Positions 1-48,557 of a stretch of DNA of 64,000 nucleotides are shown here, piece by piece. The stretch is from IMG/VR virus record IMGVR_UViG_3300033121_001334, positions 1 through 64,000 of that record; one strand, written 5' to 3'. Source of the DNA: a virus (taxonomy: Duplodnaviria; Caudoviricetes). The position numbers were made by a program, and so were the translations under genes. Under the pieces are notes generated by a model. It was given only the letters and a program-made list of their open reading frames with translations, was not told the DNA's origin and did not search any database. Each line of letters starts with the position of its first letter. The stretch's first letter is position 1.

Positions 1-465
1 GGGGTCTGATTATCCCAGAACCTTTTATTGAAGAACAAGGTTCATTCAGTTCTGGGATTTTGAGTTACGGCATGTTTGGGCCGTCCCTCGAAACTTCACC
101 CTTGCTTTCGCTTGGGTTCTCTCCTGCGCCTCGGTGCGGTTGATTAGGAGAGCCGCTGTACCTATTTACTTGTCAAACTCCAACTTTGTCGGGATACCAT
201 CCCTTTGGTCAGAGCGGGCTAATGTCGAACCTTCGAGTCGGCTTTCTAACAAGGAGGTCTGTCCAGTTTGACCTGAGTATCCTTGTTATTTGCCTCCGTC
301 GAGTCCTAGCAGCGAGTTGGACTGGTCCCTTACTCTGTTCGCCGCTAGTACGTCCCGTTGGTCCTACCTTATCGTCGAGATTTCTTCAACGCTAAGGTAT
401 CTCACCAAACTTCCGTCCGTTTCTGTAACCTTTCGGCCCTCGGTTGCGAGCGACGTTGGATTGAC
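1..465 (-). ncRNA. Candidate large structured ncRNA (3' end runs off the window)
   Basis: No credible ORF; upstream sigma70-like promoter; several 7-10 bp helices (CTAGCGGCGA/TCGCTGCTAG, ATCCCAGAAC/GTTCTGGGAT, CTCTCCT/AGGAGAG) and GAAA tetraloops on the minus strand. Confidence 0.5.
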
Positions 466-471
466 GAGATA

Positions 472-500
472 AGAATATCCGCCTCCCCCAACCCCGTCAA
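472..500 (-). promoter_or_regulatory. sigma70-type promoter TTGACG-N17-TATTCT
   Basis: -35 at 495-500, -10 at 472-477, read on the minus strand. Confidence 0.6.
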
Positions 501-561
501 GCCGTTGAACCAAGAAATTCCAAATTTCTTAGCGACAACTTATCCACAAACCTTCAACAAC

Positions 562-8775: not shown

Positions 8776-8845
8776 AAACCCTTGGTAGGATTCGAACCTA
8801 CTGGACTCCGTATGAAACCGGAGCGCTCACCAGAGCAGCAAGGTT
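8776..8845 (-). pseudogene. atypical tRNA-like element (8-nt anticodon loop GTTTCATA)
   Basis: Good T arm GTAGG-TTCGAAT-CCTAC, stem CTCCG/CGGAG, 4-nt D loop, imperfect acceptor. Confidence 0.6.
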
Positions 8846-8919
8846 TAACCTTTTCCCAGGATGATCAGTCCCAGTACGCAAGGTTGGCCGTTATATTATA
8901 GAGGAGGCCAAACCTCTAA

Positions 8920-8995: not shown

Positions 8996-9034
8996 ATCTG
9001 TACCTTTTGATTTATCGTCAAAAGTTTAGTTCTC

Positions 9035-9955
9035 AAACAGCCAAAGCTCCAATCCGGGACAGATTATCAAAACTAAGGCTGGTATTCGATCTCCCTTGCC
9101 TTTTTGTTCAATCGAGAAGGCAACTCTCTAGCTATATTTCAATAGCGCGCAAACAAAGACAAGTAAATAGTAAGCGGCAGAGGTTACTAGCCTCTGAACT
9201 TTCGTCCGTCCCAATGTTGTTATGCGACTCATCATAGAAACCCGCTTCGAATCAGGTCTCTCCGAGGCAGGGGTGGTTACCTGCAATCTCGCTCCCCTAG
9301 TCATATTATTTATGGCTAGTCGAGATCTTAGCGCCCCAACGGTTTTCCTATTGGCCTTTGCCGGATACCCGCCTTCCTTCTGCACTACACTGAAACGACT
9401 TACTCATACCTGAGTTACCAATGAACCCAGTACCTTATGCCTGGAGATAGGCATTAGATTTTCAGTCACCGCTTACTATTCACTTGTCAAAGACTTGAAA
9501 AGTCAGTGGCAAACTTTCATTTGCCAGCCGACCCTAGTAACTTTAGTTCCAAGAAGCACAAAGGCTGCTTGGTGGTCTTTTTCCCTGTCGCTAAAGTTTA
9601 TCCAACAAGGAAGCAAAGGCAGTCATAGTCTTAGGCTCTGGTCTCTTACCTCAAACTACCAGTGCTGCATCGCCTCAACATTGAATCATCTTACTGAAGG
9701 CGAACTTCAGATGATCCTTTAAAGCCGCTCTTTCTGCTTTCGCATCAGAGGGCTGCCAGGTCCGGCGTCCGTAGAGGCCGGCTGACCCGCCTTTTACCAA
9801 TCCTGTAGGTCGGCGGTTGACCCTCACAAAGACGCTGGAGAAAAGGGGGATTGTAAACCCGAAAGACCCAGCTATCTTTGCTAAAACTCAGTGCGGCGTT
9901 TACTCCGCACCTAGTTGCCCTTGCAAGCCTCGTCGTGGAGACCCAAGGGGCGTGG
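9035..9955 (-). ncRNA. Candidate large ornate ncRNA (about 920 nt; GOLLD/ROOL/MISL size class, family unassigned)
   Basis: No credible ORF; promoter at 9961-9989; at least 10 hairpins incl. GAAA and UUCG loops; 20-bp long-range helix 9158-9177/9469-9488. Confidence 0.65.
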
Positions 9956-11798: not shown

Positions 11799-12085
11799 TG
11801 GGCAAACCGGGATTCGAACCCAGAACCTAGCGATTATGCCTACTGACTTGAGTTTCCCCAAGAGTCGGACTGTACCTTCACCCGTTTCACTTCCTTACGG
11901 AAGAAAAGTTAGGGTGGCTGCCGTCCAGTCTCTACACCTTCGCTTTTCAGCGCTTGGCTCGGGATTGGCGTGAGTCTTTCGACCTTTAGCTTTCCCCGAC
12001 TTTGACAGCTTACTCATACAACATTCCTATTGTATGGACCCAAGTTTTCTTAAGTCGCTTGCTCTAACCGTTGAGCTATTTGCCC
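11799..12085 (-). tRNA. tRNA(CAT), probably Ile2, interrupted by a group I intron
   Basis: Exons 12053-12085 and 11799-11838 join to GCGA-CT-CAT-AA-TCGC; anticodon arm resembles enterobacterial ileX. Confidence 0.88.
11839..12052 (-). mobile_element. group I intron (214 nt, no ORF) after U33
   Basis: P1 GACU/UAAG-AAAA-CUUG/GGUC with U-G at the splice site; R GTAGAGACTG; S AAGGTACAGTCC; terminal G. Confidence 0.9.
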
Positions 12086-13384: not shown

Positions 13385-13458
13385 TGGGCGACCTGGGACT
13401 CGAACCCAGAACCTCTTCTACGTCAAAGAAGCGCGCTGGCCAATTGCGCCAGTCGCCC
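13385..13458 (-). tRNA. tRNA-Val(GAC)
   Basis: GGGCGACTGGCGCAATTGGCCAGCGCGCTTCTTTGACGTAGAAGAGGTTCTGGGTTCGAGTCCCAGGTCGCCCA. Confidence 0.9.
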
Positions 13459-14392: not shown

Positions 14393-14464
14393 TCGGCCCT
14401 CCCGCGCTTGAATCGGGTTCTAACGATTATCAGTCGTTTGCTCTACCACATGAGCTAAGAGCCG
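14393..14464 (-). tRNA. tRNA-Ile(GAT), atypical T arm
   Basis: AACGA-CTGATAA-TCGTT; T arm CCCGA-TTCAAGC-GCGGG has an A53:G61 mismatch. Confidence 0.75.
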
Positions 14465-14478
14465 CTTTCTAACAAAAG

Positions 14479-14553
14479 GGTGATCGACGGGACTCGAACC
14501 CGCAATCCTCTGGATCACAACCAGATGCTTAAACCAATTAAGCTACGACCACC
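14479..14553 (-). tRNA. tRNA-His(GTG)
   Basis: G-1 and C73 present; TCTGG-TTGTGAT-CCAGA. Confidence 0.92.
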
Positions 14554-15429: not shown

Positions 15430-15729
15430 TTAGTTCTGACCTTCCGGCTGAACTTCTTCAGTTTTCATTTCTTTCTGCTTCTTGATCTCTTCAGATCTTT
15501 CCTTGAACCATCGGCCAATATGGCCCTGCATTGCGTAAATGTGACCCTCGTTCTCGCTAAGTTCGCTTTCCTTGATGAACCTGGTAAGCTCAAGAGCAAG
15601 AGCCTTATTCAGGGTAATAGTGATGTTACCCTTCATATGCTCAGGGTTTGCTGCGTCAAAAGGCTGAAGAATGAACACAGGCTTCTGAAGCGGACGACGA
15701 TTTCTGACAGTTTTGGGGGAGTCGGACAT
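15430..15729 (-). CDS. hypothetical protein (start MSDSP)
   Basis: 99 aa; stop is the TAA of a motif copy. Confidence 0.65.
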   Translation of the reverse strand: MSDSPKTVRNRRPLQKPVFILQPFDAANPEHMKGNITITLNKALALELTRFIKESELSENEGHIYAMQGHIGRWFKERSEEIKKQKEMKTEEVQPEGQN

Positions 15730-15803
15730 GGATTTGCTCCAAGTGGTAAAAGTAAACACTCAAAAGATACATCGTACCTTTCTGCTTTCCACAATCAAGT
15801 CAA

Positions 15804-15875
15804 CGCGCCGTGGGAGGTTCGAACTCGCTTTTCCCGATTTGGAGGCGGGCGTCTTACCAATAGACGAATCGGCGC
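15804..15875 (-). tRNA. tRNA-Trp(CCA)-like, degenerate
   Basis: CCCGC-CTCCAAA-TCGGG; mismatches in the anticodon, T and acceptor stems. Confidence 0.55.
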
Positions 15876-15973
15876 AGTGTTACAAGCTATTCTGTTGTCA
15901 AAGAAAAAACCCCTCAAGTTTTTAGAAGGGATTTTTCCAAAAGCTTTGAAATAACTGATAAAGGAGTTCAGTT

Positions 15974-16432
15974 ATGTCAAAGTATCAGGAAATGACCCCA
16001 GAAGAAATCGAAGAATACAGAAGAAAACGTAGAGAATATTACCAGAATCTAACAAAAGAAGAAAAAGAAAGAAGAAGAATACAAAGAAGAGAAAGACGTA
16101 GAAAAAATGGAAAACCAGAAAAAGAATTAGAAGCTAATAGAAAATGGGCTGCCAAAAACAATATCAAGATTCAAAAGCAAGCTCAAGATTTGAAACAAAA
16201 ATGTGTAGAACTAAAAGGTGGAAAGTGTTTTGCTTGCAATAATTCTTTCCCGTCTTGTGTTTTTGATTTTCACCATAGAGATGTTAATCAAAAAGAAGAA
16301 CAATTATCGGTTTTGATCTACAAAGCTCACGGAGAAATGACTCAAGAACTATTATCTGAACTTCATAAATGTGATCTCCTTTGCTCAAACTGTCATAGAA
16401 TACATCACCATGTGAAACAAAAAACCCCTTGA
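15974..16432 (+). CDS. HNH endonuclease (antisense to tRNA array)
   Basis: GGKCFACNN...FDFHHRD...KCDLLCSNCHRIHH; AAGGAG SD. Confidence 0.88.
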   Translation: MSKYQEMTPEEIEEYRRKRREYYQNLTKEEKERRRIQRRERRRKNGKPEKELEANRKWAAKNNIKIQKQAQDLKQKCVELKGGKCFACNNSFPSCVFDFHHRDVNQKEEQLSVLIYKAHGEMTQELLSELHKCDLLCSNCHRIHHHVKQKTP

Positions 16433-16499
16433 ATAAACTCAAGGGGTTCCGCAGACCTGTGGACATACAGCAAGTAGTCAACAGTCGCTACCCCTTGAG
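16415..16499 (-). promoter_or_regulatory. attenuator: antiterminator 16490-16499/16438-16447 versus terminator 16438-16447/16424-16432 + U tract
   Basis: CTCAAGGGGT pairs with ACCCCTTGAG (10 bp); ACCCCTTGA-GTTTAT-TCAAGGGGT-TTTTT. Confidence 0.8.
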
Positions 16500-16543
16500 G
16501 TAATGACATGCCAAATCACCTGATGTACAACTATGCTGTTCAT
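16478..16543 (-). CDS. attenuator leader peptide MNSIVVHQVIWHVITSRGSDC
   Basis: 21 codons, GGAG SD; codons 4-14 are Ile x3, Val x4, His x2, Trp, Gln. Confidence 0.75.
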   Translation of the reverse strand: MNSIVVHQVIWHVITSRGSDC

Positions 16544-16576
16544 TTCAAAAATCTCCGCCCAACATTGGGCTACCCA

Positions 16577-16605
16577 ACTGTATCGGCTTTTTCCGCAAAA
16601 GTCAA
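16577..16605 (-). promoter_or_regulatory. sigma70-type promoter TTGACT-N17-TACAGT
   Basis: -35 at 16600-16605, -10 at 16577-16582. Confidence 0.7.
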
Positions 16606-19423: not shown

Positions 19424-19456
19424 TCGAATTATCCTTCTTCGTCTACCAATTCCTAA

Positions 19457-19775
19457 TGGACTGACCGGGACTTGAACCCGGATGGTGTTTGAATACCTGC
19501 GGATTTTCTTACCACTTCAGCTTTCGCCGACTGCCCTTTTCCATCAAGGTACTTGGGGTCTTACGTTTGTGGTCTGGACTGTACCTTCATCCGTTCTGCT
19601 TCTTACGAAGAGTTTTGGATGACCCAATTGCAGTCTCTACGGCTTCCTTTGTAGGTTTGCCTCGGAATTGGGATTTTACACCGTTTCCCGATACTCTGGG
19701 TTTCATTTACAAGATTACTCTTGTAACGCTCAAATTGTCTAAGTCCGCTGCGTCTGCCAATTTCGCCATCAGTCC
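19457..19775 (-). tRNA. tRNA-Leu(TAA) with group I intron
   Basis: Exons 19741-19775 and 19457-19507 join to GCGGA-CT-TAA-AA-TCCGC. Confidence 0.9.
19508..19740 (-). mobile_element. group I intron (233 nt, no ORF) between anticodon positions 34 and 35
   Basis: 5' AGACAATTTGAGC recalls the cyanobacterial/plastid trnL intron; R CCGTAGAGACTG; S AAGGTACAGTCC; terminal G. Confidence 0.9.
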
Positions 19776-19782
19776 AATTATT

Positions 19783-19983
19783 CTATTCTTTGCGCGAATA
19801 ATTTTGCACAGACAATTTATCTATTTGTTCTTGTTGAGATTTAATAATACTTAAGATTTTCAAAAAATCTCCAGCCATAACAAAAAAAGTATTATCTCCC
19901 TTAATAGGAAATTTTCCTCCTTTACCAGCTTTATCCATTCTTTCTTTAACGTTTTGAATAAGTTCCTCAATCTCGTTCTTCAT
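19783..19983 (-). CDS. hypothetical protein (cassette cargo)
   Basis: 66 aa, GAAAGGA SD. Confidence 0.65.
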   Translation of the reverse strand: MKNEIEELIQNVKERMDKAGKGGKFPIKGDNTFFVMAGDFLKILSIIKSQQEQIDKLSVQNYSRKE

Positions 19984-19993
19984 ATTTGTCCTT

Positions 19994-20389
19994 TCAAAAA
20001 GTCCGATGCGTCTGCCGTTCCGCCACAGGGCCGATAATCTGAGAAACAGTCATTTTGCGAACAGGTAAAATGTTGTGGTCCAAGAAGTGATTGAGGCAAT
20101 CTTCCACTTCGTCCAAGAAGCTATCGCAGGCGGCAATTCTGTTAGAGGGAAGATCTTCTCTCATTTCAAGAATCGTTCTGTAAATCGAAATCAAGTCAAT
20201 AACTTTGCATTCGATTTTAGATTCTCGCGCAAAAGTAAAAGCGTCCGAAATGAGATCCAAATCGGGCTTTCTTGCGGATTTCAATGATTGAAATGCAGAA
20301 AGAGCTTTTTCTTTGCGAAGCTCGTTCTGGTTTGGAGAGTGAATATCTACTTTAATAGAACGAAAATCAAGAGTATCAAGCATCGTCAT
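19994..20389 (-). CDS. hypothetical protein reading through the tRNA-Leu 5' half
   Basis: 131 aa; C terminus GPVAERQTHRTF is encoded by the tRNA remnant. Confidence 0.6.
   Translation of the reverse strand: MTMLDTLDFRSIKVDIHSPNQNELRKEKALSAFQSLKSARKPDLDLISDAFTFARESKIECKVIDLISIYRTILEMREDLPSNRIAACDSFLDEVEDCLNHFLDHNILPVRKMTVSQIIGPVAERQTHRTF
19999..20032 (-). pseudogene. 5' half of split tRNA-Leu
   Basis: GGCCCTGTGGCGGAACGGCAGACGCATCGGACTT. Confidence 0.82.
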
Positions 20390-20391
20390 AA

Positions 20392-20465
20392 TAGCTCCAG
20401 AGAGATTCGAACTCTCAACCTTACCGCCTTAAACGGTTTGCCTCTGCCGATTGAGCTATGGAGCC
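20392..20465 (-). tRNA. tRNA-Leu(TAA), short variable loop
   Basis: AACCG-TTTAAGG-CGGTA; 74 nt. Confidence 0.82.
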
Positions 20466-20481
20466 AAAGTTTAGTTCTAAA

Positions 20482-20555
20482 TGCTCTTGAGTGGATTCGA
20501 ACCACTAACAACTAGATTCTGAGTCTAGCGCCTCTGCCGGTTGGGCTACAAGAGC
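20482..20555 (-). tRNA. tRNA-Leu(CAG), short variable loop
   Basis: CTAGA-CTCAGAA-TCTAG; 74 nt. Confidence 0.88.
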
Positions 20556-20568
20556 GAATTTTACTAAA

Positions 20569-20642
20569 TGCCCAGGACTGGATTCGAACCAGCACTGTAT
20601 TGATTTTGAGTCAATCGCCTCCTGCCGTTGGGCTACCTGGGC
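20569..20642 (-). tRNA. tRNA-Leu(CAA), short variable loop
   Basis: ATTGA-CTCAAAA-TCAAT; 74 nt. Confidence 0.88.
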
Positions 20643-20663
20643 TTTATTGAAGTATTTCCATAA

Positions 20664-20746
20664 TGCCCCTGAGAGGATTCGAACCTCCACGTCCTTTCGG
20701 ACACGAGATCCTAAGTCTCGTGCATCTGCCGTTTCGCCACAGGGGC
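20664..20746 (-). tRNA. tRNA-Leu(TAG)
   Basis: CGAGA-CTTAGGA-TCTCG; long variable arm GTCC-GAAA-GGAC. Confidence 0.93.
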
Positions 20747-20987
20747 CTATTTTATTTAGGCCATTTTACACGGACTTGTAAAATTCCAGACAGCTTTGAT
20801 GTCTTCTTCAATCGGAAACTCATGCGATCTATTTCCGTCAACAATAACCTCTTTTACTGATTCAGTAACGCAAATTGCAGAAACTAATTTTTGAAGCTCG
20901 CTCAGAACATCGACCTGAAAATTGTAAGTGTCCTCAGTGGTTATAACAACGATTCTTTTTGTACTCATTATGATCCTTTCTTTTAAA

Positions 20988-21071
20988 TGGCCTTGACAGG
21001 ACTCGAACCTGCACTCTCTTGCGAGAACCACCACCTCAAGGTGGCGCGTCTGCCAATTCCGCCACAAGGCC
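20988..21071 (-). tRNA. tRNA-Leu(GAG)
   Basis: CCACC-TTGAGGT-GGTGG; long variable arm CTC-GCAA-GAG. Confidence 0.93.
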
Positions 21072-21080
21072 TTATGTACC

Positions 21081-21145
21081 AAAAGAAAAACCCCATCTTT
21101 TTAGGGATGGGGTTCGTGTGCATCTACGCAACGACTTCCATCCCT
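21081..21145 (-). promoter_or_regulatory. attenuator: antiterminator 21138-21145/21103-21110 versus terminator 21106-21112/21091-21097 + U tract
   Basis: AGGGATGG pairs with CCATCCCT; CCCCATC-CCTAAAAA-GATGGGG-TTTTTCTTTT. Confidence 0.82.
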
Positions 21146-21196
21146 TTATTCAAGGAGTAGGAGGCCGCATAACAAGCTGTTGAAGTTAGTATTCAT
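21146..21196 (-). CDS. leucine attenuator leader peptide MNTNFNSLLCGLLLLE
   Basis: 16 codons with 6 Leu (TTG TTA CTC CTA CTC CTT); probably a leaderless mRNA. Confidence 0.8.
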   Translation of the reverse strand: MNTNFNSLLCGLLLLE

Positions 21197-21202
21197 GGTT
21201 GA

Positions 21203-21230
21203 ACTATATACCTTTTCGGCTAGAAGTCAA
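21203..21230 (-). promoter_or_regulatory. sigma70-type promoter TTGACT-N16-TATAGT
   Basis: -35 at 21225-21230, -10 at 21203-21208, 6 nt before the leader ATG. Confidence 0.7.
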
Positions 21231-47249: not shown

Positions 47250-48557
47250 TTACCCTTTCAAGACAGCAACAGGCAGAAGTTCGATTTGGATATCAACCAA
47301 GTCCTTTTGGTTGTTCATAACAACGTCAATGCTTTTATATGCGCTTCCAAGTTCGTCATGAGCTTCTTGAACTCCATAAAGCTCAACAGAACCAAGCTGC
47401 GAAGCCTGCGAAGGGTCAAGCCCGTCAGCAATACGCTTCTTAGCGGTTGTTCTACTGAAGTTTCGACCCGCACCATGCGAACAAGAGTTGAAGCTGTCTG
47501 GGTTTTCCTTACCCTTTACAATGTAGCTCTTGCTGCACATCGAACCAGGAATAATTCCAACAGTCGTCTTGCGAGCGAGCGTTGCTCCTTTGCGATGAAC
47601 CCATACATTCTCACCATGATGATGTTCAATCGTTGCGTAGTTATGGTGAATGTTGATAATGTCCTTGAGAGCAGCCGTCTGGTGATATTGCTCTCTAACA
47701 GCTTCCTGACAACATATCATCATGAGTTTTCTGTTTACAAGAGCGTAATCTTGCGCAGCCAAAAGGCTTGCAATGTACCATTGTCCTTCGTCAGAATCAG
47801 CGGGCAAGAATGCTAGTTCTTCATTAGGAAGGCGAGTGTAGTATCTCTTGCAGGTCTTGACGGCAAGGTGATGGAACTTCTTGGCAAGCTGAGCGCCAAA
47901 GCCTCTGGAACCGCTATGAAGCATGAACCAGGCGTTGCCTTCTGCGTCTTGCTGAAGCTCAATGAAGTGGTTTCCGCCACCAAGAGTTCCTATTTGTATT
48001 TTTGCTCTGCACCATGCAGGATAATCAAGAGTCTTACAGAATTCTTTTGCTTCCTCAACCTTTTTCTCGACATCAGCAATATGGTCAATAATACGCTTAT
48101 GACCAAGCCAGAGATCGCTTCTAGAGCGGTTTTTACCTTCGCCAACAGGGACATCAGCGGCAATGGCTGTCATGAGCTTCTTGATATCAAGGTCTGCGAC
48201 TTTGATACCTGAATTCCATGCACACATTCCGCACCCGATATCCACCCCGACCGCATTTGGTGAAACGGCATTATGAAGCGGCAGGACGCAGCCGACTGGG
48301 ACTCCAAAACCTGTATGAGCGTCGGGCATGAGCGCAACATGGCGATAGACGCAAGGAAGGCGAGCAGCTTCGCTGACTTGACGAATTGCGCCTTCTTCTA
48401 GGTTGAGGATGGGCTTGCCGGTTTCTGAATCGACATCCTTCGTCCAGCACTTGACAGGAACGCCGCCAGTTTGCTCGGGCGGGATTACGACGGGTCCGAG
48501 TTTTTCTTCAATGGTTGACATGATGTGATTATAGGATAAAAAATGGCACAAAATCAA
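47250..48557 (-). CDS. rtcB: RtcB RNA 3'-phosphate/5'-OH ligase
   Basis: MPDAH, GVDIGCGM, GTLGGGNHFIE, HSGSRG, HHNY, HRKGA, PGSM, SHGAGR. Confidence 0.95.
   Translation of the reverse strand: MILCHFLSYNHIMSTIEEKLGPVVIPPEQTGGVPVKCWTKDVDSETGKPILNLEEGAIRQVSEAARLPCVYRHVALMPDAHTGFGVPVGCVLPLHNAVSPNAVGVDIGCGMCAWNSGIKVADLDIKKLMTAIAADVPVGEGKNRSRSDLWLGHKRIIDHIADVEKKVEEAKEFCKTLDYPAWCRAKIQIGTLGGGNHFIELQQDAEGNAWFMLHSGSRGFGAQLAKKFHHLAVKTCKRYYTRLPNEELAFLPADSDEGQWYIASLLAAQDYALVNRKLMMICCQEAVREQYHQTAALKDIINIHHNYATIEHHHGENVWVHRKGATLARKTTVGIIPGSMCSKSYIVKGKENPDSFNSCSHGAGRNFSRTTAKKRIADGLDPSQASQLGSVELYGVQEAHDELGSAYKSIDVVMNNQKDLVDIQIELLPVAVLKG

Follow-up and report, generated by a model that had tools for sequence, protein, structure and literature searches.

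Why phages carry tRNA genes, and when they express them, has long been an open question. One locus in the virus contig studied here raises it in a specific form: does a short open reading frame (ORF), lying between a promoter-like site and a terminator ahead of a tRNA block, decide whether that block is transcribed? The window that we analyzed, 64,000 nucleotides in all, covers the first 64 kb of a virus contig 74.6 kb long. Its coding lies nearly all on the minus strand, and the contig's genes include gyrase B, RtcB and TilS. A preliminary description of the window had read the locus as a multi-amino-acid attenuator. Our analysis supports that reading: the ORF, its codons and the 2:3 pairing are conserved, and the family holds two further codon-matched leaders. 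From these comparisons and from modeled folds, we consider it likely that the locus is a ribosome-stalling transcription attenuator that would switch on the tRNA block when decoding of Ile, Val, His or Trp codons is slow, exerting feedback on tRNA supply.

A codon-matched leader ahead of a tRNA block

The promoter, Shine-Dalgarno site and 21-codon leader of the preliminary description were all found where it had put them. The elements are as follows.

16577-16605, minus: sigma70-like promoter, TTGACT-17-TACAGT, with a GCCGATA block ahead of the -10
16570-16557, minus: small 5' hairpin ahead of GGAG
16553-16556, minus: GGAG, Shine-Dalgarno-like site, 9 nt upstream of the ATG at 16543
16478-16543, minus: 21-codon leader ORF (ATG at 16543, stop TGA at 16480-16478)
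16534-16502, minus: control codons 4-14 (three Ile, four Val using all four codons, two His, one Trp, one Gln)

The promoter-like sequence is a 9/12 match and, taken alone, does not rise above counts in shuffled sequence; its layout is shared by relatives despite 5' UTRs that are wholly different among the homologous units. Codons 4-14 (ATA GTT GTA CAT CAG GTG ATT TGG CAT GTC ATT) read identically to the series first reported. Ten of these 11 specify Ile, Val, His or Trp. When the whole ORF is counted, with no stretch singled out, the share is 10 of 20 codons (P 1e-4 to 5e-4). Among the 748 short ATG ORFs of the contig, the leader ranks first by Ile/Val/His/Trp codons, and its best 11-codon stretch holds 10 of them, compared with 7 in the runner-up ORF. 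Codon 8, a Gln codon, has no matching tRNA in the downstream block and was counted against the attenuator reading. No Rfam family matches the leader, and no T-box match appeared up to E 1.

The tRNA genes downstream, on the same strand, are these.

15803-15876, minus: tRNA-Trp(CCA), weak score (31 bits), body near-identical in relative L029
14887-14961, minus: tRNA-Val(TAC), within a cassette that splits an older Val(TAC) gene (5' half at 15417-15378)
14478-14552, minus: tRNA-His(GTG)
14393-14464, minus: tRNA-Ile(GAT)
13385-13458, minus: tRNA-Val(GAC)
11799-12085, minus: tRNA(CAT) with a 214-nt group I intron, probably Ile2

The first five had been named in the preliminary description, and all are present. 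It had also listed a probable Ile2(CAT) gene: a CAT tRNA is indeed there, interrupted by its intron and a clean cloverleaf when spliced, and the TilS encoded on the contig makes Ile2 its likely, though not certain, identity. Each tRNA of the Trp/Val/His/Ile/Ile2 block has at least one cognate codon in the leader. The block also holds HNH genes and ORFs of no assigned function; it contains no amino-acid biosynthesis, transport or synthetase genes.

Conservation among relatives

Relatives carrying the Ile/Val/His/Trp leader include contigs of 494, 506 and 371 kb and belong to a phage family of ~500 kb. The 494-kb relative, G002, is 98% complete and has 72 tRNA matches. Cultured phages gave tRNA-sized matches only, GTDB genomes yielded no relative, and protein-based locus scans added a single relative of use, G001.

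We aligned 10 distinct homologous units from this family, comprising nine distinct ORFs. The preliminary description had staked its reading on conservation of the leader ORF and the 2:3 pairing; both, as well as the codon content, are kept in the 10 units. The ATG, the frame and the position of the stop (TGA or TAA) are retained, and all indels are in frame. Five variants fall within codons 6-15, and every one is synonymous (P about 4e-4 to 9e-4); codons 16-20 vary freely, and the ATA codon is kept in 10/10 units. Paired cells of the alignment amount to 96% for the protector hairpin and 94% for the antiterminator (both introduced below), compared with 32-47% when the pairing is slid (35-47% for the protector). 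Covariation, with one both-sided pair in each structure, is sparse and does not exceed that of shuffles (44/500 and 85-124/500).

In all relatives with enough downstream DNA, the order of the genes is Trp, Val(TAC), His, Ile(GAT), Val(GAC) and then CAT tRNAs, with some duplicated. The tRNA bodies have been exchanged among relatives, and the anticodon set and order are unchanged. In relatives, about 8-45 nt separate the terminator from tRNA-Trp; there is therefore no room for a separate sigma70 promoter, and tRNA-Trp must come from read-through.

Mutually exclusive hairpins and a predicted switch

Folding predicts three mutually exclusive hairpins in the window and in 10/10 homologues.

16465-16528, minus: protector (1:2), a long hairpin of ORF nt 16-46 with nt 51-79 that conceals the antiterminator strand
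16438-16499, minus: antiterminator (2:3), 16499-16490 with 16447-16438 enclosing an inner stem; z -4.4
16416-16450, minus: intrinsic terminator (3:4) and U tract; z -4.5

The perfect pairing that had been proposed between codons 15-18 and the 5' arm of the terminator is borne out: every base of ORF nt 45-54 (16499-16490) is complementary to 16447-16438, over 10 bp. Among the contig's 22 sites with a hairpin and U tract, this antiterminator complement is the longest (9 nt as scored; the next has 7). The terminator's energy ranges from -14.6 to -20.2 kcal/mol across 10/10 homologues. The protector is less convincing in the window, at -23 kcal/mol (z -0.8, no better than shuffles) vs. -24 to -35 kcal/mol (z -1.7 to -5.1) in relatives, and it carries a mismatch missing from 9/10 homologues.

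When the transcript is cut at the end of the terminator 5' arm, the predicted probability of the antiterminator is about 1 with the ribosomal A site at or before codon 13 and 0 from codon 15. This boundary, at codons 13-14, coincides with the end of the control-codon run. In the same folding model, a ribosome at codon 4 weakens the protector from -23 kcal/mol to -19 kcal/mol, one at codons 5-9 weakens it to -16 kcal/mol, and by codon 12 the protector is gone. The full-length RNA with no ribosome folds into protector and terminator in all homologues. Two results count against the attenuator reading: in equilibrium folds of the full-length RNA, the terminator usually wins over the antiterminator even when a ribosome is stalled, and the truncated transcript without a ribosome favors the antiterminator in 9/10 homologues. 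These folds are equilibrium predictions, and the switch would therefore rest on folding order, as it does in known attenuators.

An HNH gene in the terminator region

In the window, the path from the terminator to tRNA-Trp is interrupted.

15974-16432, plus: HNH endonuclease gene (PHROG 2255, E 1e-18) inserted in the terminator region; absent at this spot in relatives
15900-15938, minus: second hairpin and U tract, built on its 3' side from the 3' arm of the ancestral terminator
15888-15903, minus: boxA-like motif directly before tRNA-Trp

Comparison with the junction in L018 and L029 places the insertion within the terminator itself. What remains of the ancestral site, at 15921-15888, is its 3' arm, U tract and boxA-like site, now joined to a new 5' arm, with 26 nt identical to L018. 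The resulting second hairpin is weaker than the first: -8 to -10 kcal/mol when the U tract stays unpaired and -14.7 kcal/mol when it pairs. This hairpin and 460 nt of antisense HNH sequence lie ahead of tRNA-Trp, which was counted against the attenuator reading, and the insertion may lower read-through in this genome. An assembly artefact was ruled out, since the insertion is present on 12 contigs from other samples.

The boxA-like motif follows the terminator in six relatives and tRNA-Trp in three. It resembles boxA motifs quoted in 10.64898/2026.07.09.737519 and, judged by this resemblance, may help read-through into the tRNAs. A TTGACA at about 15901 was considered as a -35 element for tRNA-Trp and rejected: there is no -10 at 16-18 nt, two relatives have TTGAAA, and boxA fits better.

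A different motif, with the core ACTAAACTT, occurs in 40 copies on the coding strand of the contig vs. 2 on the opposite one, many of them about 20 nt upstream of an ATG. Copies lie at window positions 15434, 13736, 13378 and 12215, within the tRNA block, and also at 9030; none is found between the terminator and Val(GAC) in G002 and L021. The motif is a candidate single-box phage promoter or cassette junction. If it is a promoter, the distal tRNAs have a second input, and its copies in the block were counted against the attenuator reading.

Further leaders in the family

It had been suggested that other jumbo phages be scanned for a leader ORF and terminator ahead of tRNA clusters, with matching codons. 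The family has two further leaders, one for Leu and one for an array of 14 amino acids; the other tRNA blocks of G002 were read as a prediction test of the leader-terminator-tRNA design. The Leu leader lies in the window itself.

21082-21230, minus: putative Leu attenuator unit (promoter 21230-21203, ORF 21196-21146, antiterminator strand 21145-21138, terminator 21115-21082)
19456-21071, minus: block of six tRNA-Leu genes (GAG, TAG, CAA, CAG, TAA and an intron-containing TAA), starting about 11 nt past the Leu terminator

The Leu ORF is near-leaderless and has 16 codons, six of them Leu codons of five different kinds. In folding, its antiterminator holds to codon 15 and fails at the stop. The unit is kept in L010 and L018, and a diverged form occurs in L030 and L040. 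In G002 the Leu leader has been rewritten, including the 2:3 pair; Leu still makes up 7 of its 14 codons, and the predicted switch is unchanged.

G002 also carries a large array of Phe, Pro, Arg, Gly, Tyr, Met, Gln, Ser, Lys, Asp, Asn, Thr, Cys and Ala tRNAs, which follows a terminator with a 39-codon ORF upstream. Codons 4-28 of this ORF are drawn entirely from the array's 14 amino acids and cover all of them, for which the joint chance is about 1e-6 with the run of codons chosen in hindsight. Directly afterwards comes a perfect 10-bp antiterminator strand, and codon 27/28 is where the model places the switch. L042 and L044 have diverged copies that retain the codon property. No leader matches the Leu or Ile/Val/His/Trp block of another; the three leader sequences are unrelated, and each fits its own block.

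Ahead of its Glu/Arg tRNA block, G002 carries a promoter of the same type and an ORF of 17 codons, Glu, Arg, Phe and Gln codons among them (C1:225600-225790, L039). This locus has hairpins but no U-tract terminator, which was counted against the attenuator reading; a Rho-dependent or decayed attenuator is possible. This leader was found in G002 and G003 only and was excluded from support. A candidate unit in L045 proved to be a chance pattern match.

Proposed mechanism and alternative explanations

From the sequence anatomy, the codon match, the conservation and the predicted folds, we infer that the leader is translated, that ribosomes stall on it and that polymerase reads through, as well as what the signal is and how far the transcript extends. 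A host-type RNA polymerase would start near 16570, and a ribosome would translate the leader. If decoding is fast, the ribosome would pass codon 14 and cover the antiterminator strand, the terminator would form, and transcription would stop near 16420. A ribosome lingering on an Ile, Val, His or Trp codon (with the strongest effect at codons 10-13 and a weaker one at codons 4-9) would melt the protector, and nt 45-54, now free, could capture the 5' arm of the terminator before its 3' arm has been transcribed. The polymerase would then enter the Trp/Val/His/Ile tRNA genes, presumably aided by the boxA-like site. With no ribosome, protector and terminator would both form and the block would stay off. 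In the window genome, the HNH insertion may damp the output. This giant phage thus probably makes Trp, Val, His and Ile tRNAs only when ribosomes read those codons slowly. Because the tRNA product would relieve the stalling signal, the arrangement amounts to a negative-feedback loop on tRNA supply.

Host anticodon-nuclease attack, tRNA overload during infection and amino-acid starvation are possible natural signals. Stalling attenuators such as the trp, his and ilv leaders cannot separate tRNA loss from starvation, and the phage unit would be equally blind to the difference. The same mechanism could thus respond to uncharged tRNA or to generally slow translation, a cue to the state of the host rather than to tRNA loss; Ile, Val and Leu are typical starvation-sensitive residues. 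We regard this version as rather unlikely: extra tRNA does not cure a lack of amino acid, isoacceptors are sampled singly (all four Val codons, ATT as well as ATA, five of six Leu codons), and the family's leaders divide the amino acids by tRNA block. The presence of RtcB and TilS on the contig is suggestive in the same direction. Isoacceptor-by-isoacceptor sampling and RtcB weakly favor tRNA shortage as the signal. A more far-reaching proposal is a whole-code tRNA homeostat, in which the Ile/Val/His/Trp, Leu, 14-amino-acid and possibly Glu/Arg leaders would jointly cover all 20 amino acids, each switching on the block of the slowly decoded tRNAs, such that anticodon-nuclease damage would be sensed and repaired without a protein sensor. 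We put this forward tentatively, as an idea more likely wrong than right.

Two further explanations bear on whether the leader controls the tRNAs at all. The locus might be an ordinary small gene with its own terminator, its codon bias reflecting RNA structure or peptide function and the tRNAs being transcribed separately. The promoter match, at chance level by itself, would allow this, and codons 6-15 lie within a conserved helix that is able to freeze the DNA sequence. Yet nt 28, 29 and 40, first or second codon positions that lie outside any pair, are invariant, whereas third positions vary, even where a pair is broken (nt 27). The lack of space for another promoter in relatives and the match of three unrelated leaders to their own blocks, with the Leu and array replicates, also disfavor an ordinary gene, which we judge very improbable. 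Alternatively, the attenuator could be real in the family and largely uncoupled in the window genome, where the HNH gene would add a constitutive second terminator (the hairpin and U tract at 15938-15900) and distal tRNAs would arise from internal ACTAAACTT promoters. The protector mismatch in the window, the strand bias of the motif, its spacing before many ATGs and its copies within the block all fit. Still, the leader, its promoter and the perfect 2:3 pairing have survived undamaged, the insertion left a complete rebuilt terminator beside the leader and spared the boxA-like site, and the second stem is weak unless its own U tract pairs; nor does the motif occur between the terminator and Val(GAC) in G002 or L021. 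Uncoupling seems unlikely to us.

Relation to known systems

Leader-peptide attenuators control amino-acid biosynthetic operons, as in trpL, hisL, leuL, thrL and the multivalent ilvGMEDA. The phage unit resembles these in its short leader with control codons, predicted exclusive 1:2, 2:3 and 3:4 hairpins, intrinsic terminator and putative multivalent sensing. The classical features found in it are a constrained leader ORF, cognate codons, a terminator and, in the folding model, an antiterminator overlapping the 5' arm. Unlike trpL, hisL and ilvGMEDA, it lies in a phage and would regulate tRNAs rather than enzymes, sense four amino acids of unrelated pathways at the isoacceptor level, and yield a product that directly restores the sensed quantity. 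To our knowledge, all described leader-peptide attenuators regulate amino-acid biosynthesis, transport or synthetase proteins; the targets of the phage unit are tRNA genes, and it would therefore work like the trpL/hisL/ilvL kind without being a member of it.

The pheST attenuator, in which the leader peptide of an aminoacyl-tRNA synthetase operon senses charged tRNA, also controls part of the tRNA supply; unlike the phage unit, it has a protein output, responds to one amino acid and belongs to a host gene. A literature search, confined largely to papers outside subscription, found no leader-peptide attenuator of tRNA genes and no T-box-controlled tRNA gene in Bacillus.

In T-box riboswitches, uncharged tRNA is bound directly by a 200-300-nt RNA, which chooses between terminator and antiterminator (PMC4052509). 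tRNA status would set the same choice in the phage unit, but there the sensor is a translated ORF; the leader, with no Rfam T-box match, is too short for a design with Stem I, a specifier loop and a T-box antiterminator bulge. The Anabaena trn operon, a tRNA array containing homing endonucleases, is kept off and induced by translational stress (TrcR; PMC8421152, PMC10272220); in contrast to the phage unit, control is by a protein repressor that acts at initiation and is not codon-specific. Neither "attenuat" nor "leader" occurs in the text of PMC8421152. The tRNA-Lys of phage T5 counters the tRNA-cleaving defense PARIS and gives a reason for on-demand tRNA supply; the abstract of that report describes no sensing switch (PMC11464382).

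A codon-matched attenuator implies that the phage supplies its tRNAs inducibly, in response to slow decoding, rather than as a constant supplement to codon usage, and would extend textbook attenuation to a new class of target in a closed feedback loop. The leader would show which isoacceptors the phage monitors (ATA/Ile2, for example) and could act as a natural tRNA-damage reporter in work on defense systems.

Other features of the contig and its relatives

An RtcB-family RNA ligase and a TilS lysidine synthetase are phage-encoded (window 47250-48524, minus; L046:7315-8376, minus). Group I introns occupy the anticodon loops of tRNA(CAT) (12085-11799, minus) and tRNA-Leu(TAA) (19776-19456, minus); only the intron of the former reaches the Rfam cut-off. 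Cassettes that hold a nuclease and a replacement tRNA of the same anticodon interrupt three tRNA genes, Leu(TAA), Val(TAC) and Lys, at the anticodon or close to it (20036-18912, 15417-14676 and 4847-4002, minus), and G001 has an equivalent at Trp.

The stretch at 9040-9950 (minus) has no convincing gene and no Rfam match. It is preceded by a TTGACG/TACAAT promoter-like site, has a boxA-like site at 9492 and ends before an initiator-like tRNA(CAT); it is kept in G001 and G002 and is a candidate large non-coding RNA. Positions 1-560 (minus), cut by the contig end, have few ORFs, a promoter-like site and a boxA-like motif at 177, and are possibly a second such RNA. An odd tRNA-like gene at 8776-8846 (minus) has an 8-nt anticodon loop (TTCA) where G001 has Gly(TCC). 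Finally, G002 encodes a tRNA with a CTA anticodon, amber suppressor-like, at C1:206506-206579 (L038).
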